Source: Pseudobdellovibrionaceae bacterium (GTDB lineage: Bacteria > Bdellovibrionota > Bdellovibrionia > Bdellovibrionales > Bdellovibrionaceae). From it: a stretch of DNA of 42,055 bases. The stretch lies in contig JBIKLL010000017.1 in assembly GCA_044359815.1 (NCBI GenBank), positions 1 through 42,055 on the forward strand, given 5' to 3'. This document shows, one piece after another, positions 1-17,182 of the stretch. Positions within the stretch are counted from its first letter, which is position 1, and each line of letters begins with the position of its first letter. A program made the position numbers and the translations under genes. Under the pieces are notes generated by a model. It saw only the letters and a program-made list of their open reading frames with translations, did no database searches and was not told the DNA's origin.

Positions 1-497
1 GTGAAGGAATTTTAAGCGCATACGCTCTTGGTTTTGCTATGAACTGTGTGGTTTTCAGGTTTGTGTCTATTTTAGGCCCCAGATACACTCACGGTCATGT
101 TTTTGATTTTATCAAAAAACTCAGCAATAATTCGAAAAAACTAGAAATTTTAGGAGACGGAAATCAAACGAAATCTTATTTGCATATCAATGATTTGATG
201 AACGGCCTGTGGACTGTGATACAAAATAAACCCGTTGGATTTAGCGTCTACAACATCGGCCATGATGACGCTCTCATCGTAAGGCAAAGTGCAAAATACA
301 TTGTGGATAAAATGAATCTTTCACCCGAGTTTCAGTTTATGGGTGGCGAAAGGGGCTGGATCGGCGATTCCCCCAGAATCCAATTGGACACGTCGAAGTT
401 AAAAAAATTGGGCTGGAAGACAACTGTCAGTTTGCAAAAGGCCGTTGAAGAAACCACTGAATATCTGCTTAAAAATCCAGAGCTGCTTAAGGATTGA
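1..497 (+). CDS. NAD-dependent epimerase/dehydratase (extended SDR), 5'-truncated by window edge
   Basis: Frame is open from base 3 (EGILSAYALGFAMNCVVFRFVSILGPR). C-terminal SDR hallmarks: GDGNQTKSYLHINDL, YNIG, GWIGD...LDTSKLKKLGW. Confidence 0.85.
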   Translation, partial: EGILSAYALGFAMNCVVFRFVSILGPRYTHGHVFDFIKKLSNNSKKLEILGDGNQTKSYLHINDLMNGLWTVIQNKPVGFSVYNIGHDDALIVRQSAKYIVDKMNLSPEFQFMGGERGWIGDSPRIQLDTSKLKKLGWKTTVSLQKAVEETTEYLLKNPELLKD

Positions 498-504
498 GGT
501 TTAA

Positions 505-1197
505 ATGTTACCGCTTTTGATTTTAGCCGGAGGCAAAGGCACCAGGCTATCGACAGTTTCAAATAATTTGCCCAAATATTTAATGCCCATATCAGATTCT
601 AAATGTTTTGCAGACATTCATTTATCCTGGTGTCGCGACCAAGGATTTAAAAAAATTTTTCTGAGCGTGGGTGTTTATTCTGAAAAAATTCAAAACTATG
701 TTGGAAATGGCAATAACTGGAATCTTGATATTGAATTCCTTTATGATGGAGACACTCCGCTGGGCACTGGTGGCGCAGTCCTTAAATCCCTAGAAAAACC
801 ATTTGAAGATTTGGCAGTTACCTATGGAGATACAATTTTAGAATTGAATGTCAGCCAGTTAATGACTGCTTATAAAGCGTCCAATGCCCAGGCTCTTATG
901 ACTGTATTCAGAAATACAGTGGCTGGCCATATTTGCAATGCAGATTGGCAAAATGGTTTTGTATCCTATGACAAAATCAATCCGAATCCAAAATGGCAAT
1001 ACATTGACTATGGGTTTATGGTTTTTAGCAGAAAATGGCTTCAACAGATTGATATTAAGCCCCCTTTTGATTTAGCCACTCCATTAAGTCAGGCTTCAAA
1101 AAATAATCAATTAGCTGGTTATTTAGCCACTAAACCTTTTTGGGAAATAGGCACCCCTAACGCTCTGGAAACGTTTAAGCAAAAGTTTGCCTTTTGA
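505..1197 (+). CDS. Sugar-phosphate nucleotidyltransferase (HddC/WcbM-like NTP transferase)
   Basis: LAGGKGTRL...PKYL motif, PLGTGGA, YGDT, C-terminal EIGTP. GAGG SD upstream. Confidence 0.85.
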   Translation: MLPLLILAGGKGTRLSTVSNNLPKYLMPISDSKCFADIHLSWCRDQGFKKIFLSVGVYSEKIQNYVGNGNNWNLDIEFLYDGDTPLGTGGAVLKSLEKPFEDLAVTYGDTILELNVSQLMTAYKASNAQALMTVFRNTVAGHICNADWQNGFVSYDKINPNPKWQYIDYGFMVFSRKWLQQIDIKPPFDLATPLSQASKNNQLAGYLATKPFWEIGTPNALETFKQKFAF

Positions 1198-1253
1198 AGG
1201 CAATTTTAATACTTTGATCCCTCATCTTTTGCTTTAAAGAAACGAGAGGTTTT

Positions 1254-1988
1254 ATGGATTTTGCGTCAATCAAATCACCCTATCAATCGAAAATAAAAAT
1301 TTACTCTGATGGTGCAGACAAAGCTTCAATGCTGGCCATGTCCAAAGACCCCTTGATTCAAGGTTTAACAACCAATCCTTCTTTGATGAAAAAAGCCGGC
1401 ATCACTAATTATAAAAGTTTTTGCCAAGATGTTTTGTCAGAAATTAAAAATAAGCCCATCAGCTTTGAAGTTTTCGCTGACGACCTTAAAGAGATGAAAC
1501 GCCAAGCTAACGAAATTAAAACTTGGGGCAGCAATGTTTATGTTAAAATTCCTATCACAAATTCAAAGGGCGAATCCTGTATCCCATTGGTAAAAGAATT
1601 GGCCCAAACAGGTGTCCGACTGAATGTCACTGCCCTGTTAACAATGGAACAGGTCACTCAAACAGTTCTGGCACTGAAAGACGGAGCTCCTTCAATAGTT
1701 TCAGTTTTTGCTGGTCGAATCGCAGATACAGGCAGGGACCCAGTTCCATTGATGACTGCAGCCAGCTATTTGTGCCGATCAGTGGATAAAAACATAGAAC
1801 TGCTTTGGGCTTCAAGCCGCGAATTTTTTAACGTCATTCAGGCTGAACAATCAGGCTGTCATATCATCACGGCAACTCCGGATTTAATCGCCAAAATCAA
1901 AATGCTAAACAAAGATTTAAGCGAGCTCAGCTTGGACACTGTGAAACAGTTTAAAAAAGATGCCGATGCTGCTGGATTCACATTATGA
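1254..1988 (+). CDS. tal: Transaldolase (short TalC/FSA-type)
   Basis: DGAD, GLTTNPSL, ISFEV, VYVKIP (Schiff-base Lys), LNVT, SVFAGRIAD. GAGG SD upstream. Confidence 0.88.
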   Translation: MDFASIKSPYQSKIKIYSDGADKASMLAMSKDPLIQGLTTNPSLMKKAGITNYKSFCQDVLSEIKNKPISFEVFADDLKEMKRQANEIKTWGSNVYVKIPITNSKGESCIPLVKELAQTGVRLNVTALLTMEQVTQTVLALKDGAPSIVSVFAGRIADTGRDPVPLMTAASYLCRSVDKNIELLWASSREFFNVIQAEQSGCHIITATPDLIAKIKMLNKDLSELSLDTVKQFKKDADAAGFTL

Positions 1989-2590
1989 TGGATTCATTTT
2001 CCAATTCTTTTATCAATGAATCAGTCAAGGTTCTTCAATCAGTTTCTGTGACTGACATTGAGGCCCTGGCTCAGCAACTGAAAAAAATCAAGTCTCAGTC
2101 TGGCAGATTGTTTATTTTAGGTGTCGGGGGCTCGGCTGGACACGCCAGCCATGCGGTAAATGATTTCAGAAAAATCTGTGGTATTGAAAGCTATGCTCCT
2201 ACAGATAATGTATCAGAACTGACAGCTCGAACTAATGATGAGGGCTGGGATACGACTTTTTCTGAATGGTTGAAGGTTTCAAATCTGAACAGCAAAGATG
2301 GAATTCTAATATTCTCTGTTGGCGGTGGTAATGCAGAAAAAAATGTTTCAATGAATTTGGTTAAAGCCATTGATTTGGCAAAAAAAGCTGGCAGCACCAT
2401 TTTAGGCATTGTTGGCAAAGACGGTGGCCATACCAAAAAATCCGCTACAGCTTGTGTTGTGATTCCTCCGCTTTTTTCTGACCATATTACTCCACACACC
2501 GAGGGATTGGCAGCAGTGGTGTGGCACCTTTTGGTTTCTCACCCAGCTATCAAAGCCCATCAAACAAAATGGGAAAGTACGGTTAAATAA
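1985..2590 (+). CDS. SIS-domain sugar-phosphate isomerase, GmhA-like but divergent
   Basis: GVGGSAGHASH, ELTARTND-EGW, SVGGGN, GKDGG. ATGA overlap with tal. Confidence 0.8.
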   Translation: MMDSFSNSFINESVKVLQSVSVTDIEALAQQLKKIKSQSGRLFILGVGGSAGHASHAVNDFRKICGIESYAPTDNVSELTARTNDEGWDTTFSEWLKVSNLNSKDGILIFSVGGGNAEKNVSMNLVKAIDLAKKAGSTILGIVGKDGGHTKKSATACVVIPPLFSDHITPHTEGLAAVVWHLLVSHPAIKAHQTKWESTVK

Positions 2591-2592
2591 AA

Positions 2593-3261
2593 GTGAAAAA
2601 ATTTTTGCTAATCGATCTTGATGACACCTTAGTAGCCTCAGAAGCCAGCTACCCCATCGCGATGGAAAAAATTGGAATTCCTCAAACAGACCCGGTTTTT
2701 TTGGAAGCCAGAGCCTTGGTTAAGGCAGGATTAACCGAACTTCACCCAAGCGCCAGATCCAGAATCTTGTACTTTAAAAAATATCTAGAAATTAAAAATC
2801 AGTTTTCAACAGATCGATTGCTTTCTTTGATTCACAAATACGAAAACGAGTTGTGTTTATTGTTAAGGGATTCTTGGAAATCACTTCAACGAGACAAACT
2901 GTTTACCGAATTGAAAACTCAATTTCAAATAATCGCGATACTGACCAACGAAACCCTCAGAATGCAGACTTTAAAACTAAATGTCTTGGATCCACAAGCC
3001 AAGTATTTCGATTTGCTGTTAACCAGTGAAGAAATTGGCGCAGAAAAACCAAGCCATAAGTTTTTTCAAACCGCAATCTCCAGACTGAAGACGCAACCGT
3101 CTGATTGTGTGATGGTTGGGGATTCTTTTGGTAAGGACATTCTGCCTTGCAAGGATCTGGGAATAACTGCTGTTAAAACAATTGAGTTCCTGAATGACGA
3201 AACCACAATGCCCTTTCACAAGGTCATTCACCGTCTGGACCAATTGCCCGAGGTGCTTTGA
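2593..3261 (+). CDS. HAD-superfamily phosphatase (subfamily IA-like)
   Basis: Motif I DLDDTL, motif II LTN, EKP, motif IV VGDSFGKDI. GTG start. Confidence 0.85.
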   Translation: MKKFLLIDLDDTLVASEASYPIAMEKIGIPQTDPVFLEARALVKAGLTELHPSARSRILYFKKYLEIKNQFSTDRLLSLIHKYENELCLLLRDSWKSLQRDKLFTELKTQFQIIAILTNETLRMQTLKLNVLDPQAKYFDLLLTSEEIGAEKPSHKFFQTAISRLKTQPSDCVMVGDSFGKDILPCKDLGITAVKTIEFLNDETTMPFHKVIHRLDQLPEVL

Positions 3262-4254
3262 TTGACTAAAAAAGTAAAATCCTTAGCCGTATCGGTATCC
3301 AAGTATTTAATAGCCGTGGGATTGATTTACTGGCTTGTAGGCTCAGGAAAACTTAATTTCCAATTACTCAAAGACGTCGCTACCCCCGTAAACGTCATTT
3401 TGATTTTTACATTAGGGGCATTTAATATTCTGTTTGCCAGTCTGCGCTGGAGAATGCTGTTACAGGATCACGTACAAAATTATCCCGTTTTGAAAATTTT
3501 TAAACTTTCCTGTGTGGGTTTGTTTTTTAATTTTGCCATGCCCGGTGGAGTCGGTGGTGACGTCATCAAGGGCTATTATCTGGTGCAGGAAAACAAACAG
3601 AAAATGACTCAAACAATCATTTCGGTACTGATGGATCGATTGGTTGGACTGTATTGCATGATTCTTATGGGCGCACTGGCAATGTTGATTGATCTTTCTC
3701 ATGTTGAAGTCGAACAGGATTTAAAACTGATTTTTACCAGCATGATTTCGATTTGGGTTATTTTTACGGTTTTTTTAATGATCTCGTTTTCAAACAGACT
3801 TCAGCAAAAGGCTTCCTTGCTGTTAAATCAGATCGAACGGTATAAAATTGGCGCTATCCTTAAGAAAATCTACTCGGCAATTTTTGAGTACTCTAAATCC
3901 AAAAAAACAGTGATTAAAGCAGTTATTCTGACTTTGGCTGCGCAAATGTTGGCCATATTAATTTTTTATATAATTGGCGAAACCTTAATGCCCGGAAAAC
4001 TGCCCCTTTCGATTTATTTTATTGCCGCACCCATTGGATTTATCATCACGGCTTTGCCAATAACCCCTGGCGGCGTGGGCATGGGGCAAGCCGCATTTTA
4101 TTATTTGTTTAATCTTTACTCTGAAGGATCTGGCCCCGTGGGAGTCACTGCTGTGACTACCCTTCAATTGATACAATTTGTTTTTGGTGTCTATGGCGCC
4201 ATCTATTTTGCCCGGCATAAAGTGTCCCCACAAATGGCCGAAAATTTGTCCTAA
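3262..4254 (+). CDS. Lysylphosphatidylglycerol-synthase TM-domain / UPF0104 putative flippase
   Basis: About 8 hydrophobic segments. Motifs RWRMLL, FFNFAMPGGVGGDVIK, DRLVGL, LPITPGGVG. TTG start abuts the HAD stop. Confidence 0.8.
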   Translation: MTKKVKSLAVSVSKYLIAVGLIYWLVGSGKLNFQLLKDVATPVNVILIFTLGAFNILFASLRWRMLLQDHVQNYPVLKIFKLSCVGLFFNFAMPGGVGGDVIKGYYLVQENKQKMTQTIISVLMDRLVGLYCMILMGALAMLIDLSHVEVEQDLKLIFTSMISIWVIFTVFLMISFSNRLQQKASLLLNQIERYKIGAILKKIYSAIFEYSKSKKTVIKAVILTLAAQMLAILIFYIIGETLMPGKLPLSIYFIAAPIGFIITALPITPGGVGMGQAAFYYLFNLYSEGSGPVGVTAVTTLQLIQFVFGVYGAIYFARHKVSPQMAENLS

Positions 4255-7200: not shown

Positions 7201-7808
7201 ATCGAGGCACTCAGTTATTTTCACCGAAAGCTGTGTATCAGTTTTTCAAGGCTCACAGCTTTGAATCCAAAATCTTTGTGAGTAACTCTTCAAAAGAAAT
7301 TGAGTTCGACTTTCCCAGACAAAATAAATCACCGTATCTTTGTATTTCTGACTATGTTTCAAAAACTCCCAATCAAGACAATCTAGCGATGTTTGTTGTC
7401 ACAGCTGGGAACCAAGTTCGTGAAACCGCAGAAAAGCTCAAAGAATCTGGGCAGTTTTTAAAATGCCATGCCTTACAGGCTTTAGCTCTGGAAACTGCAG
7501 AATCCACTGCTGAATGGATGCATGGATTTTTGCGCGGATTATGGGGATTTCCTGATTCAACTGAGCTCTCAATGCTTGAAAGATTTCAGGCCCGATACCG
7601 CGGTAAACGTTATTCTTTCGGATATCCCGCCTGCCCCAGATTGGATGATCAAGAACTGCTTTGGCAATTGTTAAATCCAACGGATATTGGTGTTCAATTG
7701 ACTGAAGGTTTTATGATGGACCCTGAAGCCAGCGTTTCAGCCATTGTATTTCATCACCCTGAAGCCACTTATTTTAGCGTAGGAAATCAATTAGAAGCCA
7801 GCCTATGA
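4299..7808 (+). CDS. metH: Cobalamin-dependent methionine synthase
   Basis: LDGAMGT; Zn ligands LNCATGP and GGCCGT; pterin domain GERTN; B12 motif DVHDIGKNLV...SGLL; activation domain RYSFGYPACP. Confidence 0.97.
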   Translation: MTNYKHRNALLQAQAANRILVLDGAMGTAIQDLKLSDADFGGADLEGCNENLVLTRPELIQQIHEKYLSVGCDIIETNTFGSTPLVLDEYKLGSKAYEISKIAAELAVKAAQKYSTDSQPRFVAGSIGPTTKAISVTGGVTFQQLIDNYYVQCKGLMDGGCDYLLIETAQDSRNIKSALLAIEKLEHEYQQEILVAVSGTIETMGTMLAGQSVEAFFAAVMHKPLFYIGLNCATGPEFMTDHIRTLSKLSPFKVACIPNAGLPDEDGCYVETPDSMAKVLNNFMSNGWINFIGGCCGTNYDHIKKFSEIAKNFKPRTVSQVKKSYLSGIEFLEVGDDMRPIIVGERTNVIGSKKFKTLITNNSFEEASDVGRAQVKSGAAIVDICLSNPDRNEIEDMKSFMEKAIKVIKAPIMIDSTDEKVIELALTYCQGKSIINSINLEDGEKRFEEVVPLARSYGAALVVGTIDEDPIKGMAVTADRKLQVATRSHKLLTQNFNFPEEDIYFDPLVFPCATGDENYIGSAKETIEGIRLIKKQFPFCKTVLGISNISFGLPAAGREVLNAVFLNHCVEAGLDLALVNSEKLERFANIPAHELELSNNLLFNIKTQANPDPIAAFAAHFRERKKVSTVDRTSIPIDQRLSKNIVDGSKEGLLEDLETLSKTTKPLDIINGPLMRGMDEVGKLFNANKLIVAEVLQSAEVMKAAVAYLEPLMEKTEASNRGKILLATVKGDVHDIGKNLVDIILSNNGYQVINLGIKIPPEVLIENVRKHNPDIIGLSGLLVKSAQQMVITAEDLSNAGITTPMLVGGAALSRSFTEKRILPAYKGPVLYANDAMNGLDLANQIQNKEKFKAILSEIEITRKNVANAVQAPKAEASAPVTKSSIANAKDIPAPPDFTRHVIKDLPIDRMWKFINPLMLYTRHLGIKAKSAKLLGDLDEGRIKESAVAAEDPKALEIWKQVQEIKSEYRGTQLFSPKAVYQFFKAHSFESKIFVSNSSKEIEFDFPRQNKSPYLCISDYVSKTPNQDNLAMFVVTAGNQVRETAEKLKESGQFLKCHALQALALETAESTAEWMHGFLRGLWGFPDSTELSMLERFQARYRGKRYSFGYPACPRLDDQELLWQLLNPTDIGVQLTEGFMMDPEASVSAIVFHHPEATYFSVGNQLEASL

Positions 7809-8719
7809 ATCAATTCAACACCACAGATATAAAAATGACGGAACTGATGGCTCAATCCAGTTTCACTATTTCTGCCGAAGTCATCCCCCCTCGTAACGGA
7901 GCTCCACAGGAAGAAATTTTATCACAGATCAATCAGTTGGTTGCCAGTGGCACACAATTTCTGTCTGTGACCAAGGGAGCTGGAGGAAGTCTGCGCGGTG
8001 GCAGTTTACCAATAGCTCAAACAATTAAAGATCATTTTAGGAAACCTGTAATAGCGCATTTTACTTGCCGCGATCTGACCCCTGAGGAAGTAGAGAACCA
8101 GTTAATGGATCATCATTACTTTGGCGTCAGAAATATTTTAGCACTCAGAGGCGATCCTCCGCAGGGTATCGCTGATTGGAAGGCCAATCCAAAATCCTAT
8201 TTGTATGCCTATTTGTTGATTGATCAGATTAAAAAACTCAATGAAGGACAGTATTACCACCGAGAAGGTTTCAAAGCGGGAAACACAAAGACTGACTTTT
8301 GCATTGGAGCTGCTGCTTACCCCGATGATGCTGGAACTGAACAAAGAATCGGATACTTCCTGAAAAAATATTTAGCTGGAGCTCAATACGGAATCACACA
8401 AATGGTTTATGATGTCGATTCTTATGCCAGTTTTTTGGATGAGCTGGGTAAAAATAAATGTGATATTCCAATTTTAGTAGGCACACGTGTTTTAAAAACT
8501 AAAAAGCAAGCCCATACTATGATTCAAAGATTCGGAATCAAAATTCCTAATTGGTATATAAATGCTCTGCCTGAAGTTGAAAACAAAGATAGGGCCTACG
8601 AACTTTTCCTGGAACTGGCTGAGGGCTTTAAGAAAGCCGGAGCTCCAGGCATCCATGTATTTGTTTTGTCAGATACTGAACTCAGTTGCCGAGTGATTAA
8701 AAGCCTTAAACCCAGCTAA
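7805..8719 (+). CDS. metF: 5,10-methylenetetrahydrofolate reductase
   Basis: SAEVIPPR, SVTKGAGG, AHFTCRD, ILALRGDPP, ITQMVYD, GIHVF. ATGA overlap with metH. Confidence 0.92.
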   Translation: MNQFNTTDIKMTELMAQSSFTISAEVIPPRNGAPQEEILSQINQLVASGTQFLSVTKGAGGSLRGGSLPIAQTIKDHFRKPVIAHFTCRDLTPEEVENQLMDHHYFGVRNILALRGDPPQGIADWKANPKSYLYAYLLIDQIKKLNEGQYYHREGFKAGNTKTDFCIGAAAYPDDAGTEQRIGYFLKKYLAGAQYGITQMVYDVDSYASFLDELGKNKCDIPILVGTRVLKTKKQAHTMIQRFGIKIPNWYINALPEVENKDRAYELFLELAEGFKKAGAPGIHVFVLSDTELSCRVIKSLKPS

Positions 8720-9315
8720 ATCCATTTGTCAGGAAATTTAGTGCAAACGGCATCAGCGTAATTTGCAAAATATTTTTTATGCTCGCCAATTAAATTTTCC
8801 GGCAACTTCTGAAGCTCAGGTGACACCAAACAGATTTTAAAATTTTCTTTCAACTCATTGAGCCAGCTCAAAGGGACCATTTTATTTTCGAAACAATCAA
8901 CCCAAAGCCACTGAACCTTTCCAATAAACATTTTTGCAAATTCTAAGGGTTCAACTGCAGACAGTCTGACTGACAGATTTTGTGATTTGACTTTCTTAGC
9001 ATGAATCAAATGGTAGAGCGTTGGTATCGTGGTATCTAGAAAAAAATAATTTTGAAAATCAATTTCTTTCATTTTCACAATAAGGTCTTCTTCCAAACCG
9101 TCATCTTTCGTATTTAAAATTAATGGGCCCGAAATTTTCTTGGATTTAAAAACTTCCAGCCATTGATCAAAATCTTCACCTTCAGTGAAAACATCGTGAG
9201 TGACTTTTATTTTTCTGCCTTGATCAGTCGCTCTTAAATCAATCTCTAAACCCCAGTCATTTTTGATGGTCGCCAGATCTTTAACTGAGTTCACTCTGTG
9301 TTTGATTATTTTCAC
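8716..9315 (-). CDS. Small GDPD/PI-PLC-like phosphodiesterase (TIM barrel) of polysaccharide clusters
   Basis: N-terminal HRVN, GLEIDLR, VTHD, LNTK, FFLD, WLWVDCF, ICLVSPELQ, DAVCTK. Confidence 0.7.
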   Translation of the reverse strand: MKIIKHRVNSVKDLATIKNDWGLEIDLRATDQGRKIKVTHDVFTEGEDFDQWLEVFKSKKISGPLILNTKDDGLEEDLIVKMKEIDFQNYFFLDTTIPTLYHLIHAKKVKSQNLSVRLSAVEPLEFAKMFIGKVQWLWVDCFENKMVPLSWLNELKENFKICLVSPELQKLPENLIGEHKKYFANYADAVCTKFPDKWI

Positions 9316-9316
9316 T

Positions 9317-11335
9317 CTAGCCCCTCGTTTTAGTCAGAAAATATAAAATCATCAGCTGATGTATGCCCTCTAAACCATTTCTCCATTTGGGTGGCCAATA
9401 GCTTCTGGTCAACTGTCTGATATTCAAAAACCATTTTTCTGCAAATGCTTGAATCATTTCAGCAGATGGCTTGCCGCTGATTCTGACCTTAGCCGTATCA
9501 ATACTGCCAGTATCCTGCATGATTTCTACCTGACAGGATAGCTCCTTAAGATTCATCAAAAAATCTAATACTCCAGGATCAGCTTTGATTTCATACTCAC
9601 ACTGCAAATCACGCCTTTCTCCATTTAATATCTGCTCCACACTCATGGAATCTGAAAAACAATATCTTATAACCCAATCAGATTTGCCTCTTTGTGGAAT
9701 GATATATTTTTCCCCATCTAATTTTCTGGCTTCAAAAGACTTAACAATAGAATCCCGATCATGCTTGCGGTCTTTAGAATCCCGTTCAAGCTTCCAAGCC
9801 AATCTGAGCTCAGGCTGGGGATCCAAAAATATTTTCAGATTCATTGCATCTCTAAAATCTTCTGAAAACAATGAATGCAGCCCTTGCATAACCACAGTTT
9901 TTGATGGCACCAGCTCGCGCGGCTGAGTGAACTTGCCTGTTTGATGGTTGTAATGCCGAAAGTGAAAGGACCTTCCCATACTGATCAGTCTTATATGATT
10001 CATCATTTCTTTTAGATGATTAGAAAATGGATTTAAATGAGTCAGGTATTCCCAATTGGGATCACGTCTTTCCCATTTGTGGTAGTCATCGCCTTCAATC
10101 ACTTGAACCGAGGATTCCGAAAACAGATCACTTATCAATCCAGTAAAATAATTTTTCCCAGCTCCAGAGTCTCCACTCAATCCCAAAATATAGGTCTTAC
10201 CCCGCTCAGTTATCGGGGATTCAAAAGTAATCACATAATTATATATTGAAAGCATGGCCCCCAATAGTGTCACTTGCAATGCCGTCAACACTAAGCTCTT
10301 CATCAATGGATCTGGCATTTTATTAAAAAGCTCAAAATATCCAAAATAAAGCAAAATCATGGCAGCAAATATCAACTTAGAAGCTGAATAATATCTGGCC
10401 CAAAAAATGGCAAAGAAAGGCATGACCCAAAAATACCACCCAGGCATCGGATTTGTGATCAGCAACAAAGCTCCCATTATCAAACCTGATCCAAAAAACA
10501 GCCCATCTTCACTTATCTTCGTACTAAATACCATTCTTGCAATGGTTGCGAACAACAGAAAAAGTCCAATATACAAAACGTGAGTCTCTGAAAGCTTAAA
10601 TTGCATCGCAAACACTCTGAGAGCTTCCGGTGAGCCTGCAGAAATATAATCTGCATTTTGGGCTAAAATATTTGGCAGCAAACCAAACCCAACCAGAATC
10701 AACAAAACCCCTGACCAAGTCAAAATTTTAACCAGGGCTTGCTTTAAAAAATGGGTATTCCAAATATAAGCCATAAAAAATGGGATTAAAATAATCACAT
10801 GAAACTTAGACAATATAGCTGCAGCAAAGCAAACCGAACTGCTCAGAATATTTTTCTGCATCAACTGGTAAATTGCCAACACCGTGAAAAACATCACGAT
10901 TAAATCCAACTGGCCATGCAAATAGGAAATATAAATCACAACAGGGTTGAGCCAATAATAAACCTGCAGTCTTTTGAAATTAATTTCAAATATACTAGTC
11001 AGCAATACCAAAAAACCTACATCGAAAATCAAAAGCGGAAACTTCATCAGCACGACGCTCAAAATTGAATTGCCTAAGGCCAGTTCTCCAAAAAGTGTGT
11101 AGAAAATCATTTTTGGTACAAAAAACAATACAAACAAAACTAACCCATAGGGAAAATCCGCTGGGCTAGACAGCATCCACGGATTTGCTGGAAACTGAGT
11201 GACGGCCTTATCCACAAAGGGGATAAATTTATCCATCATAAACTCTGAAGGCACCACAAACATCAACAAGATGCGGATCAGTAACCCAAACCAAAACAAT
11301 TTAGAGCTTAATATTTTTCTGAAGACTTCAATCAC
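9317..11335 (-). CDS. Fusion of a GT-C-fold polytopic membrane glycosyltransferase (GT87/DUF2029-like) with a C-terminal phosphoribulokinase/uridine-kinase-like P-loop domain
   Basis: N-terminal ~370 aa has about 11 TM segments with DFPYG, WLNPVVIYISYLHGQLD and PMPGWYFW. C-terminal domain has GDSGAGK, GDDYH, YNHQTG, GLH and WKLERD. Confidence 0.75.
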   Translation of the reverse strand: MIEVFRKILSSKLFWFGLLIRILLMFVVPSEFMMDKFIPFVDKAVTQFPANPWMLSSPADFPYGLVLFVLFFVPKMIFYTLFGELALGNSILSVVLMKFPLLIFDVGFLVLLTSIFEINFKRLQVYYWLNPVVIYISYLHGQLDLIVMFFTVLAIYQLMQKNILSSSVCFAAAILSKFHVIILIPFFMAYIWNTHFLKQALVKILTWSGVLLILVGFGLLPNILAQNADYISAGSPEALRVFAMQFKLSETHVLYIGLFLLFATIARMVFSTKISEDGLFFGSGLIMGALLLITNPMPGWYFWVMPFFAIFWARYYSASKLIFAAMILLYFGYFELFNKMPDPLMKSLVLTALQVTLLGAMLSIYNYVITFESPITERGKTYILGLSGDSGAGKNYFTGLISDLFSESSVQVIEGDDYHKWERRDPNWEYLTHLNPFSNHLKEMMNHIRLISMGRSFHFRHYNHQTGKFTQPRELVPSKTVVMQGLHSLFSEDFRDAMNLKIFLDPQPELRLAWKLERDSKDRKHDRDSIVKSFEARKLDGEKYIIPQRGKSDWVIRYCFSDSMSVEQILNGERRDLQCEYEIKADPGVLDFLMNLKELSCQVEIMQDTGSIDTAKVRISGKPSAEMIQAFAEKWFLNIRQLTRSYWPPKWRNGLEGIHQLMILYFLTKTRG

Positions 11336-12048
11336 ACGCGTTCCTTAGAAAGTTTCCAGATATAAATAATCATATTTTTGATGTGTTTAAATCTGGATTT
11401 AAACGAAGCTGCCCAGTTCGATAATCCATGGACTCTTGGCGGAAATTCCACTTGGATTGTTTGTATTTGATAACCATTTTTACGAGCGCAATACAGGACA
11501 TACAAATCAAAAGCGAAATCATATGGAGGATTAATGACTTGTTCCAGTAAACTTCGGTGAAAAACTTTAGGCTGAGCATTGATTTCGAACAAAAAATATC
11601 CCAAAAGCACCGAGGCTATGGTTTCAAAAACTCTGCTGACGACAAAATCTTTCCAGTTTCTGCCAAACCTTTTACCCTTTACCAACACTCTTCGTCTTTG
11701 AGATTTCAATTTCTTCAGGGCAACAAAAGCATCATTGGGGTCGCACTGTTGATCTGCATGTGACCAAGACACATATTCAGCCACTGTGGAACTCAAACCC
11801 TGCCACAATCCATAGCCGTAGCCTTGGTTATTGTCTATGCACACCACCCGAAACCAATCTCCCAATTCAGTCTCACGCAATTTGTACATGACCGCTCGGG
11901 AGTCGTCTTTTGAACCATTTTCTACCAACACTAAACCAAAGCTACGATGATCAAAACCATGTTTTTTAGCAGCTGAAATAGCTCTTTCTATTAATTGCTT
12001 GATGGACTTAGATTCATTGTAACATGGCAGTACTAATTCAAATTCCAT
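11332..12048 (-). CDS. GT2 glycosyltransferase, DPM1/GtrB-like (polyprenyl-phosphate glycosyltransferase)
   Basis: LVLPCYNE, VENGSKD, NQGYG, HADQQ (DxD equivalent), FAFDLYVL, RVHGLS. Confidence 0.85.
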   Translation of the reverse strand: MEFELVLPCYNESKSIKQLIERAISAAKKHGFDHRSFGLVLVENGSKDDSRAVMYKLRETELGDWFRVVCIDNNQGYGYGLWQGLSSTVAEYVSWSHADQQCDPNDAFVALKKLKSQRRRVLVKGKRFGRNWKDFVVSRVFETIASVLLGYFLFEINAQPKVFHRSLLEQVINPPYDFAFDLYVLYCARKNGYQIQTIQVEFPPRVHGLSNWAASFKSRFKHIKNMIIYIWKLSKERV

Positions 12049-13585
12049 CGCTTATGACTCCCGAAAAACGATTTCGTTTGGTTAAGCTCCGTCCACCAAA
12101 AACTTCATACCAATAAAGCGCTTCGGACATAGCTTGGGGATCTCCCCAGTTAATATAAGATTTAAGGGGACAAATTTTCACTGTCTTACCGGCCTCGATA
12201 AGGCAATTAAAAACCAAATCTAAATACAATTCACCATTGGCTCTAAGATTTTTTGCAGTCTGTAGCTCAATACCTTTTTGTAAAATCTGATTTGATTTAA
12301 ACCAAAAACTCCCTACCAACAAAGGATCTGCAGTTGGTGAATCCGAAATAGTCTTTTTGCAAGACACACTAACAACCTGTCCATTTTTTTCTGCATTTAC
12401 ATAGGCGTAAGATTCAGAATTTCTGCGGCTTCCTGGATACCCAGTTACGGTAAAAATAACGGCATCTGCTTCCGTCTTTGCCTTTTCAAATACATTTTCA
12501 TCTATAACAATCTCATGATCGCAGGCGGTAACAAAAACTTCCCGATCCATGGGCAGCTTCAAAGCACCAGCTAAAGTCGTCAGTGACTGACCTTCAGGAG
12601 TCTTTTCTATAAACAAAGATTCTTCGCCCCCCAGATACTTTCTATGCTCTTCCAGGGCAACAAACAGTTTTTTACCATCAAAGCAATTCACTGCCCTTTG
12701 ATAAATAGGTGACCCATCTATTTTTAAAAAAGGCTTAGGCACATCTGTAGTTTGCCGAAACCTCTTACCCATCCCAGCCATTGGGACCAAGATATGGGCC
12801 ATCTGAATCTTTGGACGTTTTTTAAAATAATTTTCAAAGGTTTTTTCCCAATAACAATAATCCGATAAATCTTCAGGTGTTCCCCACTGATAAAAAGCAG
12901 GGATTTCATAAACTGTTACAAAGGTCTCTGGATTTGCCTTCATCAAACTTTGCACAGTCAATGAAGTGTAGGATTCTCCATTGATAAAATTTTTCTCGCT
13001 AAATTGTAAATCTAAAGCCTTTAACAGCAACTTACCTGTTTTAAAATAATAGATTCCATTCGAGGCATACTCTTTTTCCCGATCTTGAAACCAACCTTTT
13101 TCCTTAATTTCTATGACTCTGTTATTTTCAACTCGGCTATAGGCATAGGGAGTTTCTGTGACATAGTGAGCATGATATCCAGAATAGGACACCAAACAAC
13201 AATCAGATTCTGTTTGTTCGACAAATCTTAAAAAATCATTGGCATCCCATTTCATCCCAAAATCGCAATAACTAACAATCACTGATTGATCTGTGTTTAA
13301 TTTGTCTTTGATTGACAGCAATGCTCGACCAGGCCCCTCGCTGTGCGCCGGCACATAAAAAACTTCTGACTGCGGTCGTAATTTCTTTAAGGTTTTTTCT
13401 AAATTGGTTTGCCTGTGGTTTTCCGCCAGCACAAAACAACAAGGCCAGTCGTTCGGAAAATTGTCCAACAGTCTGCTGATGATGGACTTACCATTAATCT
13501 CAATCAATGGTTTAGGTTCTAAATACCCTGCTTTTTTAAATCGACTCCCCTGACCTGACATGGGAACTACTAATAATGGCTTCAT
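12038..13585 (-). CDS. Tandem two-domain nucleotidyltransferase (BcbE-like / NTP transferase fold)
   Basis: Two copies of the PMxGxGxRF...PKP signature (PMSGQGSRF..PKPL and PMAGMGKRF..PKPF). Each domain ends with NGE.Y...WGxP. Confidence 0.8.
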   Translation of the reverse strand: MKPLLVVPMSGQGSRFKKAGYLEPKPLIEINGKSIISRLLDNFPNDWPCCFVLAENHRQTNLEKTLKKLRPQSEVFYVPAHSEGPGRALLSIKDKLNTDQSVIVSYCDFGMKWDANDFLRFVEQTESDCCLVSYSGYHAHYVTETPYAYSRVENNRVIEIKEKGWFQDREKEYASNGIYYFKTGKLLLKALDLQFSEKNFINGESYTSLTVQSLMKANPETFVTVYEIPAFYQWGTPEDLSDYCYWEKTFENYFKKRPKIQMAHILVPMAGMGKRFRQTTDVPKPFLKIDGSPIYQRAVNCFDGKKLFVALEEHRKYLGGEESLFIEKTPEGQSLTTLAGALKLPMDREVFVTACDHEIVIDENVFEKAKTEADAVIFTVTGYPGSRRNSESYAYVNAEKNGQVVSVSCKKTISDSPTADPLLVGSFWFKSNQILQKGIELQTAKNLRANGELYLDLVFNCLIEAGKTVKICPLKSYINWGDPQAMSEALYWYEVFGGRSLTKRNRFSGVISDGI

Positions 13586-14484
13586 TTTTTACCCAGCATT
13601 GAAATTCGGTGTTTTTCAGTAGGCAGTGATTCAATTTTATTCACTTCTTCCTCGTTCAGCGGCGTTAATTCAGTATGGTAATGGTCCAACACACAAGCTG
13701 AAGCAAAAATTTCTTTTAAATTTGTATCAGCATCATTCGCTAAAAAATAACTATTTCCATTTTTACTCAGCAGATTCTTTAGTTTAGATTGAACGACCGC
13801 CAAATCTGGAAAATATATTTTCCCAGACCATCCGGACTTTAAATAATCATTAATATTTTTAAATTTCTCAAGTTTTAAAAAATCAAATAACTCTGATTCA
13901 AACTGTTGGTATTTTTCAAAATCAGTCACTGAATTGCTAGCCAATATAACCCCGTGGTTCTGCAGAAAATAAACTTGCGCCAATGGGCTATTAAATATTT
14001 CTCGGCTCAATGACAATCCGGGAGTTTGCTTTTCAATCAAGGCAAAATCACCAAAGCTTGATCTCCAATTTTTTGCATACCAATCTAAAAAATTCCTTAA
14101 ATCTTTTTTGATTTTTTGATAGCAAACAATTGCGGTCAAACTGTGAAAATGGCAGACCCACTTAAATGGCAAAATGGCATGAAATGGAGTTTCCATAGAA
14201 GGTTTTGAATGGCCTGATTGCAATGCTTTGTTAAGAGCTTCCTCCAACCCACTGTCAGTAATGTCAAAATTCTTAATTTCATTTTTAACAAAGGATCCAT
14301 ACTTCAGCGGTGCCAGGTCACTCAGGCCCGATATTGAATCCAGTCTTTTACCTGAACCTTTAATCCACAGAATGTCATTGTCCTTAACTGACAGATTTCC
14401 GCCAGTTCCCTGTATCCAAAACACACCCCGATGCTGTATTTCCTTGCACATTCTCAAGAATACAGAAAAATCACTGCTTTCCAC
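13582..14484 (-). CDS. Class II aldolase/adducin-family Zn enzyme
   Basis: GTGGNLSVK, IKGSG, KPSMETPFH, HFHS, LQNHGVI (Zn-binding His triad). GTG start with AAGGA SD. Confidence 0.85.
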   Translation of the reverse strand: MESSDFSVFLRMCKEIQHRGVFWIQGTGGNLSVKDNDILWIKGSGKRLDSISGLSDLAPLKYGSFVKNEIKNFDITDSGLEEALNKALQSGHSKPSMETPFHAILPFKWVCHFHSLTAIVCYQKIKKDLRNFLDWYAKNWRSSFGDFALIEKQTPGLSLSREIFNSPLAQVYFLQNHGVILASNSVTDFEKYQQFESELFDFLKLEKFKNINDYLKSGWSGKIYFPDLAVVQSKLKNLLSKNGNSYFLANDADTNLKEIFASACVLDHYHTELTPLNEEEVNKIESLPTEKHRISMLGKK

Positions 14485-14630
14485 TTCAATTAATTCCTTT
14501 AAGCAGTACTATCTTTCAAGCCAAAACCGATGTCCAGCAGTCTAAAATCTCCCTCCATTAACTCTTTGCATAAAACGTATAATTTCCTGAATACTTTGGT
14601 TCAATGAAGCATCAGTAATTTTCAAACGGA

Positions 14631-15161
14631 GTGACCATGAGTTTAATGTTAAAACAGCTTTTTGCTTTTTTTAAGGTTCTCAATTCAGACACTGGCACTA
14701 ATCAAATAGCAGCCGGTTTAGCCATAGGAGTGGTCTTAGGCTTTTCGCCTTTGTTTTCTCTTCAAGGGCTGCTGATAATCATTTTGATTTTTTTCTTTAG
14801 ATTTCAAATGGGTGCCGCTTTTGTATCGGCCTTCTTTTTTAAATTCACCGCATTTTTGTTAGACCCAGTCACTAACAGTCTTGGCCAAAGCGTTCTTGAA
14901 AGCCAGTCCATGAGGCCTCTGTTCATTCAACTTTACAATATGCCCATAGTGCCCTTAACCAGATTTAATAATTCTATCGTCATGGGATCTGCTGTTATTT
15001 CTTTTGCGCTGGTTATTCCGCTGTTCTTTTGTTTCAAAGTTTTGGTCATTAAATACAGAGTCAATGTTGTTAATAAGTTCAAGCAGTCAAAAATTTGGAA
15101 AGCATGGACAGCCACAACGGTTTACAAAATGTACTCTAAATACAACGACCTTTACGGATAA
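14631..15161 (+). CDS. TIGR03546-like (DUF2062-related) membrane protein
   Basis: LNS..G.NQIAAG.A.G..LGF.P and LYNMPIVPLTRFNNSIVMGS; hydrophobic; directly precedes its usual partner. The real start may be the ATG at 14637. Confidence 0.75.
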   Translation: MTMSLMLKQLFAFFKVLNSDTGTNQIAAGLAIGVVLGFSPLFSLQGLLIIILIFFFRFQMGAAFVSAFFFKFTAFLLDPVTNSLGQSVLESQSMRPLFIQLYNMPIVPLTRFNNSIVMGSAVISFALVIPLFFCFKVLVIKYRVNVVNKFKQSKIWKAWTATTVYKMYSKYNDLYG

Positions 15162-15175
15162 AGCGGGGATTATAA

Positions 15176-17182
15176 ATGAACACTCCAGACAAAAAAACAA
15201 CCGATAAAAAACCAAAAGTCACAAAACCTCAAGGCCCCATCCGCACAGAAGCCATCATTCCCTTTTTGATAGTCGTGTTACTGATCGGTGGGTATTTCAA
15301 ATTTTTATTTGATCACAATTTAAAAACCTTAATTGAATGGGGCGGATACTTTGCTGTTGGTGCCGAAGTTAACGTAGGCTCTGTAAATACCAGTTTTTTA
15401 AAAGGAACTTTTCAAATTAATAATATACAAGTAACAGATGCTGAAAAGCCCAACTTTAATTCATTTGAAATTTCTGATATTCGTTTTGCCATTTTATGGG
15501 ATGGATTACTTCGCGCCCGAATCATCATTGATGAAATGGCTGCTGAGGGAATAAAAATTCAATCCCCCAGAAAGCGACCAGGCCGGGTCAGACCGCCAGA
15601 CCCCGTAAAGCCCCAGGATTCTGGCGGCTCAGTGATTGGTGAAAAAGCTCAAGAATTGAAAGACAAAGCCCTTGATAAGGTCGAAGAATCCCAATCGGAA
15701 AACATCCTAGGAGATCTGGCCAGCCTATTAGGTGGAACTTCTTCATCTGATCAAATGGGCAAAATTGAAGGCAATTTAGCCTCAAAAGCCAAAATCAAAG
15801 AATTTGAAAAGGCCTTCAAGGAAAAACAACAAAATTGGAACGCTAAAATCAAAACCCTACCCCAAGGCAAAGAAATCCAATCCATTGGTGATCGCCTTTC
15901 AAAGGTAAAGGTCAAAGATTTTAAATCCAAGGAAGAGCTTGAAGCTTCTCTGAAAGAAATTGATACGATTTTAAAAGATGCAGATGCTAAAGTTAAAACC
16001 ATCAGCGCCGCTAACTCTGAGCTAAACAGTGATTTAAAAACACTGGATCAACAGTATAAAGAGATTGATGAGATGGTTAAAAACGACATCAAAGCTCTTG
16101 AATCAAGATTTAAAATTCCCAAACTGGACGCTGCTTCATTGTCCAAAGCGCTGTTTGCCCAGTATACGGGACCCTATTTGGCAAAAGCCAATCGCTACAA
16201 ATCCATGGCTGAAAAATACATTCCTCCAAATTTAATGAAGAAAGACAAAAAAGCTCCCGAAGACGAAATCAAACCTCACCCTAGGGCAAAAGGCGTTTCA
16301 TATGAATTTGGACGTCCAAATTCATATCCTATGTTTTGGATTAAACGAATACTTATAAACTCCAAGGCGACACCTGAAGGTCTTGGCAACCTCGATGGTA
16401 AAATCACAAACATAACTTCAAACCAAAAGCTGATCAATCAACCCACAGTGATAACTTTTAATGGGGACTTTCCATCTTCACAGCTTTCAGGGTTAAAATC
16501 TTTGATATCCATCGATACCAGACCCGAAGATTCTTTGATCGATTTTGCTTTTGATGTGGGCCAATACCCTATCTCTGACAAGGATCTGGTTGCTTCAGAC
16601 GAAGTCTCCGTTGCGTTTGCAAAAGCTTCGGCGGGGTTTGTATCCAAGGGCTCATTGACCGGCCTGACGCGCTTTAAATATCAAATGGAAAATAAATTCA
16701 GTAACGTTCAATACAATGTCAAAGCCAAAAACCAAACTGTCTCCACCGTTCTGACGGATATTTTCAAGGACATTCCAACAGTGACAGTTGATGTATCAGC
16801 TTCTGGCAATCTGCCCCTACCGAATCTAAGCTTGAGCTCAAATTTGGGATCCGAACTACAGCGGGGACTTGAAAAACAGCTTCAAAAGAAAATCGATGAA
16901 GCTCGAAAAAAATTGGATGAATTTGTAAATGCTCAAATTGGCGCTGAACGTAAAAAGATTGAGGACGAGTTTAATAAATTCAAGTCTCAATACCAAGGTG
17001 AAATTTCAAAAATTCAAAACCAAATCAATGGTGAAAAATCAAAAGCTGAATCCAAGGTCAACACGGCCAAAAAAGAAGCCGAAAATGATGCCAAAAAAAA
17101 GCTTGAAGCCGAAGCCAAAAAAGCTCTTGGCGACGACGCCCAAAAGAAAATGGACGAACTGAAGAAAAAATTTAAATTTTAA
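15176..17182 (+). CDS. TIGR03545-like protein (N-terminal TM anchor, AsmA-like beta region, long coiled coils)
   Basis: Single TM, then GAEVNVGSV...GTFQINNIQVTDAEKP..N, PRAKG..YEF....YP.FWIK, and a Lys/Glu-rich C-terminal coiled coil. Confidence 0.75.
   Translation: MNTPDKKTTDKKPKVTKPQGPIRTEAIIPFLIVVLLIGGYFKFLFDHNLKTLIEWGGYFAVGAEVNVGSVNTSFLKGTFQINNIQVTDAEKPNFNSFEISDIRFAILWDGLLRARIIIDEMAAEGIKIQSPRKRPGRVRPPDPVKPQDSGGSVIGEKAQELKDKALDKVEESQSENILGDLASLLGGTSSSDQMGKIEGNLASKAKIKEFEKAFKEKQQNWNAKIKTLPQGKEIQSIGDRLSKVKVKDFKSKEELEASLKEIDTILKDADAKVKTISAANSELNSDLKTLDQQYKEIDEMVKNDIKALESRFKIPKLDAASLSKALFAQYTGPYLAKANRYKSMAEKYIPPNLMKKDKKAPEDEIKPHPRAKGVSYEFGRPNSYPMFWIKRILINSKATPEGLGNLDGKITNITSNQKLINQPTVITFNGDFPSSQLSGLKSLISIDTRPEDSLIDFAFDVGQYPISDKDLVASDEVSVAFAKASAGFVSKGSLTGLTRFKYQMENKFSNVQYNVKAKNQTVSTVLTDIFKDIPTVTVDVSASGNLPLPNLSLSSNLGSELQRGLEKQLQKKIDEARKKLDEFVNAQIGAERKKIEDEFNKFKSQYQGEISKIQNQINGEKSKAESKVNTAKKEAENDAKKKLEAEAKKALGDDAQKKMDELKKKFKF

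Follow-up and report, generated by a model that had tools for sequence, protein, structure and literature searches.

We describe a conserved gene cassette, one copy of which lies in a window of 42,055 nucleotides from a Pseudobdellovibrionaceae bacterium (GenBank assembly GCA_044359815.1, contig JBIKLL010000017.1; the window is the whole stretch of DNA that was analysed). This copy comprises a minus-strand operon of five genes at 8716..14484 and, on the plus strand, a gene for a HAD-family phosphatase at 2593..3261. We put a probability of roughly 0.6 on the outline of the model developed below, in which operon and HAD gene are one example of a conserved, uncharacterised cassette built from two modules. 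To judge from the resemblances of its enzymes, the cassette probably turns ribulose 5-phosphate into an activated five-carbon keto-sugar, which is attached to the cell surface via a lipid carrier. The gene set is far beyond chance because it recurs across phyla, and the strongest argument for the division into modules comes from viruses, which keep the soluble genes of the cassette and exchange those for delivery.

A first-pass annotation, made from the sequence alone, had named the five minus-strand genes as a class II aldolase, a double nucleotidyltransferase, a GT2 glycosyltransferase, a fusion of a GT-C glycosyltransferase to a phosphoribulokinase (PRK)-like domain, and a GDPD/PI-PLC-like enzyme. 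The open reading frame listing returns five minus-strand genes at exactly the coordinates it had given, and all five domain identities hold by HMM, profile and fold searches. Beginning with the first gene, the operon encodes a class II aldolase-like zinc enzyme of 300 residues with a family-specific C-terminal domain (13582..14484; Pfam Aldolase_II), a tandem double nucleotidyltransferase of 515 residues, designated NT2 (12038..13585; NTP_transferase, NTP_transf_3 and an IspD-like start), a polyprenyl-phosphate-type GT2 of 238 residues (11332..12048; PF00535), the GT-C::PRK fusion of 672 residues (9317..11335, its GT-C part encoded by 10208-11335 and its kinase part by 9665-10189), and a phosphodiesterase-like protein of 199 residues with a predicted GDPD/PI-PLC fold and no signal peptide seen (8716..9315). 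Overlaps of 4, 11 and 4 nucleotides between consecutive genes, and a final pair only 1 nucleotide apart, make this a tight operon. The sixth cassette member, the HAD phosphatase, is assigned by family clustering and by its match to NCBIfam model NF053830.

A locus search with a single protein as query found nothing; an alignment was required. An alignment-based scan of contigs representing one genome per species found 113 places that encode a relative of the fusion, and 80 of these were retained. These loci span metagenome-assembled genomes (MAGs) labelled Bdellovibrionota, Elusimicrobia, Myxococcota, Armatimonadota, Acidobacteriota and Chloroflexi, a Leptolyngbya, archaea, and others, the closest relatives of the fusion being in Bdellovibrionota MAGs at 35-45% identity. 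By tblastn, the fusion is accompanied by GT2 in 67 of the 80 loci, by NT2 in 66, by the GDPD-like gene in 64 and by the aldolase gene in 50, with many of the misses at contig ends. Clustering of all open reading frames brought out the HAD phosphatase as the sixth conserved gene, in 45 loci. Thirty loci are well flanked, with at least 7 kb on each side. All five partners are present in 22 of these and four partners in another four (NT2 28, GT2 28, aldolase 26, GDPD-like 26, HAD 25). Gene order varies among phyla.

The same association is seen at the level of whole genomes. Among 40 relatives of this genome, a full-length fusion occurs in three, and strong profile matches to the GDPD-like and aldolase-like proteins occur in the same three only; HAD profile matches are found in these three and in one genome that is 67% complete. 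In one of the three carriers the cassette genes co-occur although they are spread over three contigs. The cassette is thus an accessory unit of patchy distribution, with its components inherited as a set. The five genes grouped in the first-pass annotation do co-occur, in many phyla and among relatives of this genome, but the conserved unit is larger: it counts six genes, and a seventh, GtrA, in Proteobacteria. The commonest extra neighbour is a gene of the GDP-mannose 4,6-dehydratase family, found in 17 of the 80 loci.

Some bacterial loci depart from the arrangement in the window. NT2 is fused to GT2 in locus L023 (numbers with the prefix L are our locus labels), and is represented by two separate genes in L042, L063, L072 and L077. 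Apparent long fusions in L061 (1184 residues), L069 (1034 residues) and, for the aldolase, L049 were rejected after a hand check placed the neighbour in another reading frame; we take them to be artefacts of choosing the longest open reading frame. A further apparent long aldolase fusion is in L080, like these a GC-rich locus.

Scans of IMG/VR with profiles of the fusion and of the GDPD-like protein gave 88 viral loci from about 70 contigs; 19 to 20 contigs were fetched twice, so that all per-locus counts given here double-count them. Names of giant-virus bins (GVMAG) are attached to 21 of the 88. NT2 is present in 82 loci, the GDPD-like gene in 65, and the aldolase gene in 66 by tblastn or 80 by profile. 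The fusion protein has a match in 80 loci, full-length in just three, and in 77 the PRK part occurs without GT-C. GT2 and GT-C are found in only three loci; a GT61 glycosyltransferase stands alongside the soluble genes in 65, replacing the pair. Viruses, then, keep the soluble genes and swap GT2 and GT-C for GT61, which separates a sugar-making soluble set from an exchangeable delivery set. This modularity is our strongest argument that the kinase, HAD, aldolase, NT2 and GDPD-like proteins jointly make a nucleotide sugar and that GT2 and GT-C in cells, or GT61 in viruses, only deliver it.

Gene fusions tie the soluble set together further. HAD is fused to aldolase in 19 viral loci on 13 contigs. 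A 726-residue protein joins NT2 to a C-terminal GDPD-like domain (L155:6423-8603), and a 675-residue protein does the same for GT61 (L123:6-2033, equivalent to L170:6564-8591). The viral stand-alone PRK proteins, about 440-500 residues long, begin with a domain of about 190 residues (for example L084:7437-8036 and L085:3595-4194) that has invariant G12, R15, R110 and D112; no family was found for it, the best profile match in the PDB having E 0.024 and DUF7796 matching weakly in 4 of 29 sequences. A PCNA gene in 12 of the loci suggests eukaryotic viruses. The one viral record examined for a giant-virus capsid gene had no match, which is uninformative. The phage genomes of INPHARED contain no relative of the 199-residue GDPD-like protein at E <= 1e-8.

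Carriers of the complete cassette were found by tblastn against plasmids, in three named organisms. On a 33-kb IncR plasmid of Escherichia coli the cassette consists of NT2, GtrA, GT2, a PI-PLC/GDPD protein, a 660-residue "uridine kinase", HAD and class II aldolase, with IS26 nearby. A plasmid of a second E. coli strain carries an identical cassette, for a total of two among 5426 complete E. coli genomes, both plasmid-borne. Azospirillum brasilense MTCC4039 has the cassette on plasmid p5, followed by ABC transporter, gmd and GT1 genes, and Hirschia baltica ATCC 49814 has it on plasmid pHbal01. The cassettes of all three organisms include a GtrA gene, which completes the three-component logic of Gtr systems in the proteobacterial copies. 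Directly after the aldolase gene, E. coli plasmid NZ_CP145712.1 (L171) encodes a 586-residue hypothetical protein at 13224-14984, and hypothetical genes of similar size lie near the Azospirillum and Hirschia copies. Such genes could be acceptor-specific partners.

The fusion protein consists of a GT-C domain (residues 1-376), a PRK-like kinase domain (about 380-560) and a C-terminal extension. Pfam recognises the PRK domain at residues 383-557 (E 3e-31). Over about 180 residues the kinase domain matches PRK structures 6kev and 6hzk with E 6e-36, against 8e-8 for uridine kinase, so that by sequence comparison it is much nearer to genuine phosphoribulokinase than to uridine kinase. In 26 of 26 sequences there is no variation at the Walker A (P-loop) residues G388, S390, G393 and K394, nor at D416 of the DDYH motif and H464 of the YNH motif, two motifs that line up with their counterparts in Synechococcus PRK. 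The catalytic Asp/His dyad of PRK is given as Asp57/His105 in Chlamydomonas numbering in the review PMC9978339; by motif position, D416 and H464 are its putative equivalents. Compared with class II (plant, cyanobacterial and archaeal) PRK, the likeness extends over the aligned region and these three motifs; the differences are that the cassette kinase sits behind a 376-residue GT-C domain, that its C-terminal part is unmatched, and that its score stays below the curated NCBIfam cut-off. A role in the Calvin cycle was considered and set aside as unlikely because the search of this genome, at 91% completeness, gave no RuBisCO match. The Allomeiothermus silvanus plasmid NC_014213.1 encodes a genuine PRK next to cbbX at 50237-50806, and this matches only the kinase part of the fusion (380-558, 36% identity); it serves as a natural control for how a Calvin-cycle PRK appears in such a search.

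Residues 1-376 are predicted by AlphaFold2, with pLDDT 96.5, to adopt a GT-C fold. The top Foldseek matches are Gpi14/PIG-M, PIG-U, ALG6, PimE, ALG3 and ArnT; the first 25 all have the GT-C fold, with TMq of at most 0.65. The domain in the window matches no Pfam family itself. Among 47 relatives there are matches to GT87 (11), Alg6_Alg8 (7), ALG3 (4), PIG-U (3) and PMT_2 (1). Its most conserved parts are outer loops (F37, P39 and F40; P52 and W53; F61, P62 and Y63; W128 and P131; Q142 and D144; W303 and P306). D144 is invariant in all 47 sequences and position 105 is Asp in 44 and Glu in three, both lying outside the first outer loop; position 42 is Asp, Asn or Glu in 34.

The window HAD clusters with the HAD genes adjacent to the cassette in the 45 other loci. 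The HAD-family profile, which includes the window's own row, has it as its only strong match in this genome, scoring 254 bits where the runner-up scores 31.7. All 41 cassette HADs scanned match NF053830, the NCBIfam model for ribulose 1,5-bisphosphate (RuBP) 5-phosphatase, with a best E of 1.8e-58; the best E for the second model is worse by 22 orders of magnitude. In scans of single sequences (n=33), NF053830 is the top model for 17 and TIGR02253 for 13, and three have no match at E <= 1e-22. On these model comparisons, the nearest named relative of the cassette HAD family is the haloarchaeal RuBP 5-phosphatase. That enzyme, according to PMC9700705, converts RuBP to ribulose 1-phosphate, which is then handled by a FucA-type class II aldolase.

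The aldolase-like protein of the cassette matches PF00596 (Aldolase_II, E 5e-14), and none of its 32 aligned family members departs from E98, H102, H112, H114 or H177. The metal site of class II aldolases combines three His with a catalytic Glu (Glu73, His92, His94 and His155 in FucA), a pattern that E98, H112, H114 and H177 fit. The family profile aligns these Glu/His motifs with 3m4r and with FucA, 3m4r being the best solved relative (E 3.5e-23) and FucA the next. In NCBIfam, 29 of the 32 members match the N-domain of the bifunctional (rhamnulose-1-phosphate) aldolase/SDR protein. Its C-terminal domain, some 100 residues long, is seen only in this family. In NT2, NTP_transferase and NTP_transf_3 match residues 9-201 and a second domain runs from 264, with an IspD-like start at 264-309. 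The glycine-rich G-x-G-x-R...K-P signatures of both domains are kept in 85 to 90 of 90 bacterial and viral sequences, and both domains are therefore probably active.

The GT2 protein matches PF00535 (E 1.4e-14), and the seven best PDB sequences for its family profile are three of ArnC, one DPMS (Pyrococcus) and three of GtrB/sll0501 (E 9e-22 to 1e-16); against the ArnC model NF007986 the protein scores 35 bits, with a cut-off of 529. The 199-residue GDPD-like protein has no Pfam match at E <= 0.01, PF03009 included, and no NCBIfam match, and the family sequence profile has only non-significant matches in the PDB; the relationship is seen by fold search. AlphaFold2 predicts a TIM barrel (pLDDT 97.2), for which Foldseek returns GDPD structures 2pz0 (E 2e-6, TMq 0.69) and 2o55 (TMq 0.77), then spider PLD and PI-PLC, with GDPD chains at TMq 0.6-0.77. 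The GDPD/PLC-like superfamily is marked by a catalytic and metal-binding motif of the form H-R ... E-x-D ... H-D. H6, R7, E24, D26, R28, H40 and K70 are invariant in the cassette family (H6, R7, E24, D26 and H40 in 40 of 40 sequences). Alignment of the E-x-D and H-D segment to Thermotoga maritima GDPD has a non-significant E of 0.76; the third metal-ligand position is occupied by N68. RefSeq labels the plasmid homologues as PI-PLC/GDPD family proteins.

From these identities and folds, and from the conservation, fusions and phyletic co-occurrence of the genes, we infer substrates, an order of steps, and delivery to an acceptor. The PRK-like domain, facing the cytoplasm, would phosphorylate ribulose 5-phosphate to RuBP, and the HAD phosphatase would remove the 5-phosphate to leave ribulose 1-phosphate. 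The aldolase-like zinc enzyme would reshape this ketose 1-phosphate, most likely by epimerisation through retro-aldol and aldol steps. The two NT domains and the GDPD-fold enzyme would then produce a nucleotide-activated pentulose. The ArnC/DPMS/GtrB-like GT2 would place the sugar on polyprenyl phosphate and, after flipping, the GT-C domain would move it to an acceptor outside the cytoplasmic membrane, following the logic of Gtr and Arn systems. The entry route from ribulose 5-phosphate by way of RuBP and ribulose 1-phosphate to a modified ketose 1-phosphate is suggested by the joint inheritance of three proteins that resemble PRK, RuBP phosphatase and class II aldolase, in a genome where RuBisCO has no match, and it appears to be the simplest reading. 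The first-pass annotation had proposed a ketose phosphate, pentulose or hexulose; the overall interpretation is partly supported, the ketose gaining from the kinase and the HAD and narrowing to a pentulose. Because two independent similarities, to PRK and to RuBP 5-phosphatase, point the same way, we hold the chances about even that the sugar is indeed a pentulose.

A ketose 1-phosphate is no glycosyl donor, and the cassette supplies exactly two probably active NT domains and a phosphodiesterase fold of a cyclising or hydrolysing kind, fused in one virus; we propose that the phosphate may shift from C1 to C2 through a cyclic phosphate, which the GDPD-fold enzyme would make or open before a second nucleotidyl transfer. 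A possible route would run from an NDP-1-ketose to a 1,2-cyclic phosphate, then to a 2-phosphate, and finally to an NDP-2-ketose. The evidence for this shift is suggestive only, and we think it rather unlikely to be correct in this form. As proposed, the chemistry would have no precedent in nucleotide-sugar biosynthesis.

Several observations weigh against the model as a whole. Against the curated NCBIfam cut-offs for named functions all six proteins fall short, so none can be filed under a characterised equivalog family. The kinase scores 176.9 bits against PRK07429, under the cut-off of 236. No cassette HAD attains the NF053830 equivalog cut-off of 330 bits, the best scoring 197.9. The 13 HADs for which TIGR02253 is the top model all belong to the Bdellovibrionota-type clade, window copy included, for which TIGR02253 gives 84.5 bits and NF053830, second, 79.9. 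In this window the HAD gene also stands outside the operon, 5.5 kb away. The Ru1P (ribulose 1-phosphate) aldolase model is matched by only 6 of 32 aldolase-like proteins, the family being nearer to the rhamnulose-1-phosphate aldolase domain. On the delivery side, GT2 ends soon after its catalytic domain, without a transmembrane anchor, at 238 residues compared with 322-374 in its solved relatives. GT-C transferases typically have a conserved catalytic acidic residue in the first extracytoplasmic loop; here the first outer loop has no invariant acidic residue, position 35 being Asp or Glu in 30 of 47 sequences. Finally, the Bdellovibrionota-type loci conserve no flippase; GtrA is not conserved across the 80 loci, and none is found in the window.

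Four other explanations of the gene set were weighed. The one that survives best, though we regard it as improbable, is that the cassette builds a phosphodiester-linked decoration of ketose phosphate or polyol phosphate, comparable to ribitol phosphate or glycerol phosphate, and no glycoside. An NDP-1-linked pentulose would then donate pentulose 1-phosphate, with the GDPD-fold enzyme trimming or transferring phosphodiesters and a different sugar passing through GT2 and GT-C. In its favour, the phosphate of a ketose 1-phosphate sits on a non-anomeric carbon, the second NT domain begins like IspD, a member of a family with non-anomeric phosphates as substrates, and phosphodiester metabolism is the usual setting of GDPD folds. 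But the cassette conserves no CDP-alcohol phosphotransferase and no LicD-type or TagF-type transferase. The transferases that are conserved are glycosyltransferases, GT2 with GT-C or else GT61, and NT2 can be fused to GT2, all of which favours a glycoside.

If the kinase and phosphatase acted on another ketose phosphate, such as sedoheptulose 7-phosphate or a hexulose 6-phosphate, the product would be a heptulose or hexulose. The window HAD shares its plus-strand operon with a transaldolase, a GmhA-like SIS isomerase and an HddC-like nucleotidyltransferase, a transaldolase and a SIS gene are near the cassette in L063 as well, and the shortfall of kinase and HAD from their curated cut-offs would leave room for such a substrate. 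Yet L063 is the only one of the 80 other loci where those genes accompany the cassette, and the two separate resemblances to RuBP enzymes favour the pentulose; we consider a longer ketose quite improbable.

We give as little credence to the idea that the GT-C-like domain is no transferase but a PIG-U-like membrane anchor or scaffold for the kinase, with the final transfer left to another enzyme. The lack of an invariant acid in the first outer loop agrees with it, and PIG-U, a non-catalytic GT-C-fold protein, appears near the top of the structural and the Pfam matches alike. A mere scaffold is harder to reconcile with outer loops that are the best-conserved parts of the domain, with the constant company of a polyprenyl-phosphate-type GT2 that is lost together with GT-C in viral versions, and with GtrA in the proteobacterial cassettes. 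Highly improbable, lastly, is that kinase, HAD and aldolase form a catabolic shunt from ribulose 5-phosphate through RuBP and ribulose 1-phosphate to dihydroxyacetone phosphate and glycolaldehyde beside unrelated glycosylation genes. In favour of such a shunt, the same three enzyme classes form the second half of the haloarchaeal non-carboxylating pentose bisphosphate pathway (PMC9700705). Against it, the kinase is here covalently joined to GT-C, viral HAD::aldolase genes travel with NT2, the GDPD-like gene and GT61, the phyletic patterns of all parts coincide, and spending ATP to make RuBP just for cleavage would bring no obvious benefit.

The two-module glycosylation cassette can be set beside several known systems. 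Like the Gtr (GtrA/GtrB/GtrC) systems for O-antigen glucosylation and the Arn (ArnC/ArnT) system for lipid A modification, it pairs a GT2 with a GT-C-fold protein, with GtrA in proteobacterial copies. It differs in that its GT-C is fused to a PRK-like kinase, its GT2 has no transmembrane tail, four further donor-making enzymes are present, and Bdellovibrionota-type loci conserve no GtrA; the gene set suggests a sugar other than a common hexose. The NDP-heptose pathway proceeds through GmhA, the HddA/HldE kinase, the HAD phosphatase GmhB and the HddC/HldE nucleotidyltransferase. It shares with the proposed route phosphorylation at C1 to a bisphosphate, removal of the distal phosphate by a HAD enzyme, and nucleotidyl activation. 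The cassette kinase, however, is of the PRK/Udk P-loop type and the substrate would be a ketose, in which C1 is non-anomeric; the heptose pathway has no counterpart of the aldolase-like enzyme, the second NT domain or the GDPD-fold enzyme.

A five-carbon furanose on polyprenyl phosphate, used by GT-C transferases outside the membrane, is also found in the decaprenyl-phosphate arabinofuranose/ribofuranose route of Corynebacteriales. Its starting compound is PRPP, it employs a UbiA-type transferase and no nucleotide sugar, and the cassette contains none of its enzymes. The haloarchaeal non-carboxylating pentose bisphosphate pathway (PMC9700705) offers the nearest relative of the HAD, the RuBP 5-phosphatase, together with a class II aldolase-family companion, the counterpart of the one fused to HAD in the 19 viral loci. 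In the cassette, by contrast, RuBP would come from a PRK-like kinase and not from an R15P isomerase, the aldolase is nearer to rhamnulose-1-phosphate domains, and the context of nucleotidyltransferases and glycosyltransferases is anabolic. The first-pass annotation knew of no characterised pathway with this gene set, and our literature searches likewise turned up no published description of the cassette pathway; article supplements lay outside the search and may bear on the gene content of the Yersinia enterocolitica and E. coli clusters.

The remaining features of the window concern the setting of the cassette. The plus-strand operon (3-4254) that contains the HAD gene also encodes an epimerase/dehydratase fragment (3-497), the HddC-like nucleotidyltransferase (505-1197), the transaldolase (1254-1988, above the TIGR02134 cut-off) and the GmhA-like SIS protein (1985-2590). 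Relatives of the last two lie near the cassette only in L063 (L063:156-1453), a Neomarinimicrobiota MAG. This operon may represent a second, heptose-like sugar pathway or a lineage-specific extension of the cassette. Abutting the HAD gene is a gene for an LPG_synthase_TM membrane protein (3262..4254, plus strand; PF03706, E 2.8e-37; TIGR00374 "flippase-like domain", E 4.8e-22). A relative adjoins the cassette in only one of the 80 other loci, next to the HAD gene in L035 (L035:3269-4177), so that its membership is doubtful and it is a candidate flippase only.

The minus-strand operon is convergent with metF (7805-8719, plus strand), the stop-codon ends of metF and the GDPD-like gene sharing 4 nucleotides (8716-8719), and no terminator-like site was found between the two. 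Since metH and metF adjoin the operon and MtnB is related to class II aldolases, a link to methionine metabolism was entertained; it was rejected, neither metH nor metF standing beside the cassette in any of the 80 other loci. On its other side the operon is divergent from a TIGR03546/TIGR03545 pair (176 and 668 residues; 14631-17182, plus strand), which is not a cassette companion in the 80 other loci. The intergenic region between them, upstream of the first operon gene (14485..14630), is the presumed promoter region and contains one promoter-like site on the minus strand at 14536-14508; such sites are not enriched in the region, with 16 observed against a mean of 16.8 in shuffles. Because rpoA, adk, secY, rplB, fusA and rpoC lie in the remainder of the window, at 17-42 kb, the operon is located in the core chromosome.

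Sugars of the kind that the cassette might activate are on record. Xylulofuranose (Xulf) occurs in the O-antigens of E. coli O95 and O97, for which the review PMC7685785 reports that no nucleotide-precursor genes were found for it; L-Xulf decorates the D-rhamnan of Y. enterocolitica O:10, according to PMC11380512; and Xulf is found in N-glycans of chloroviruses MT325 and TN603, according to PMC9614988. We advance, as a tentative hypothesis that is more probably wrong than right, that the cassette is the missing route to a nucleotide-activated pentulofuranose, of xylulose or ribulose, and hence the donor pathway for the Xulf of E. coli O95/O97, Y. enterocolitica and chlorovirus N-glycans, with the move of phosphate from C1 to the anomeric C2 included.

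For the activation of ketopentoses such as xylulofuranose for glycans, the cassette is a concrete and testable candidate, and tractable cultured carriers exist in E. coli with its IncR plasmid, A. brasilense MTCC4039 and H. baltica ATCC 49814. Its spread takes in many bacterial phyla, archaeal MAGs and viral contigs, several labelled as giant-virus bins, and the delivery module is exchanged along the way, from a lipid carrier and GT-C in cells to a soluble GT61 in viruses. If the model is true, nucleotide-sugar biosynthesis would gain three new kinds of tool, a phosphoribulokinase, a RuBP phosphatase and a GDPD-fold protein, and the cassette would give new meaning to annotations of "uridine kinase" and "phosphoribulokinase" outside autotrophs. 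Two viromics papers class viral "phosphoribulokinase" as a photosynthesis gene (PMC10732071, PMC13390420). Should the pentulofuranose hypothesis hold, many viral auxiliary genes now assigned to that class would instead be genes for building glycans.

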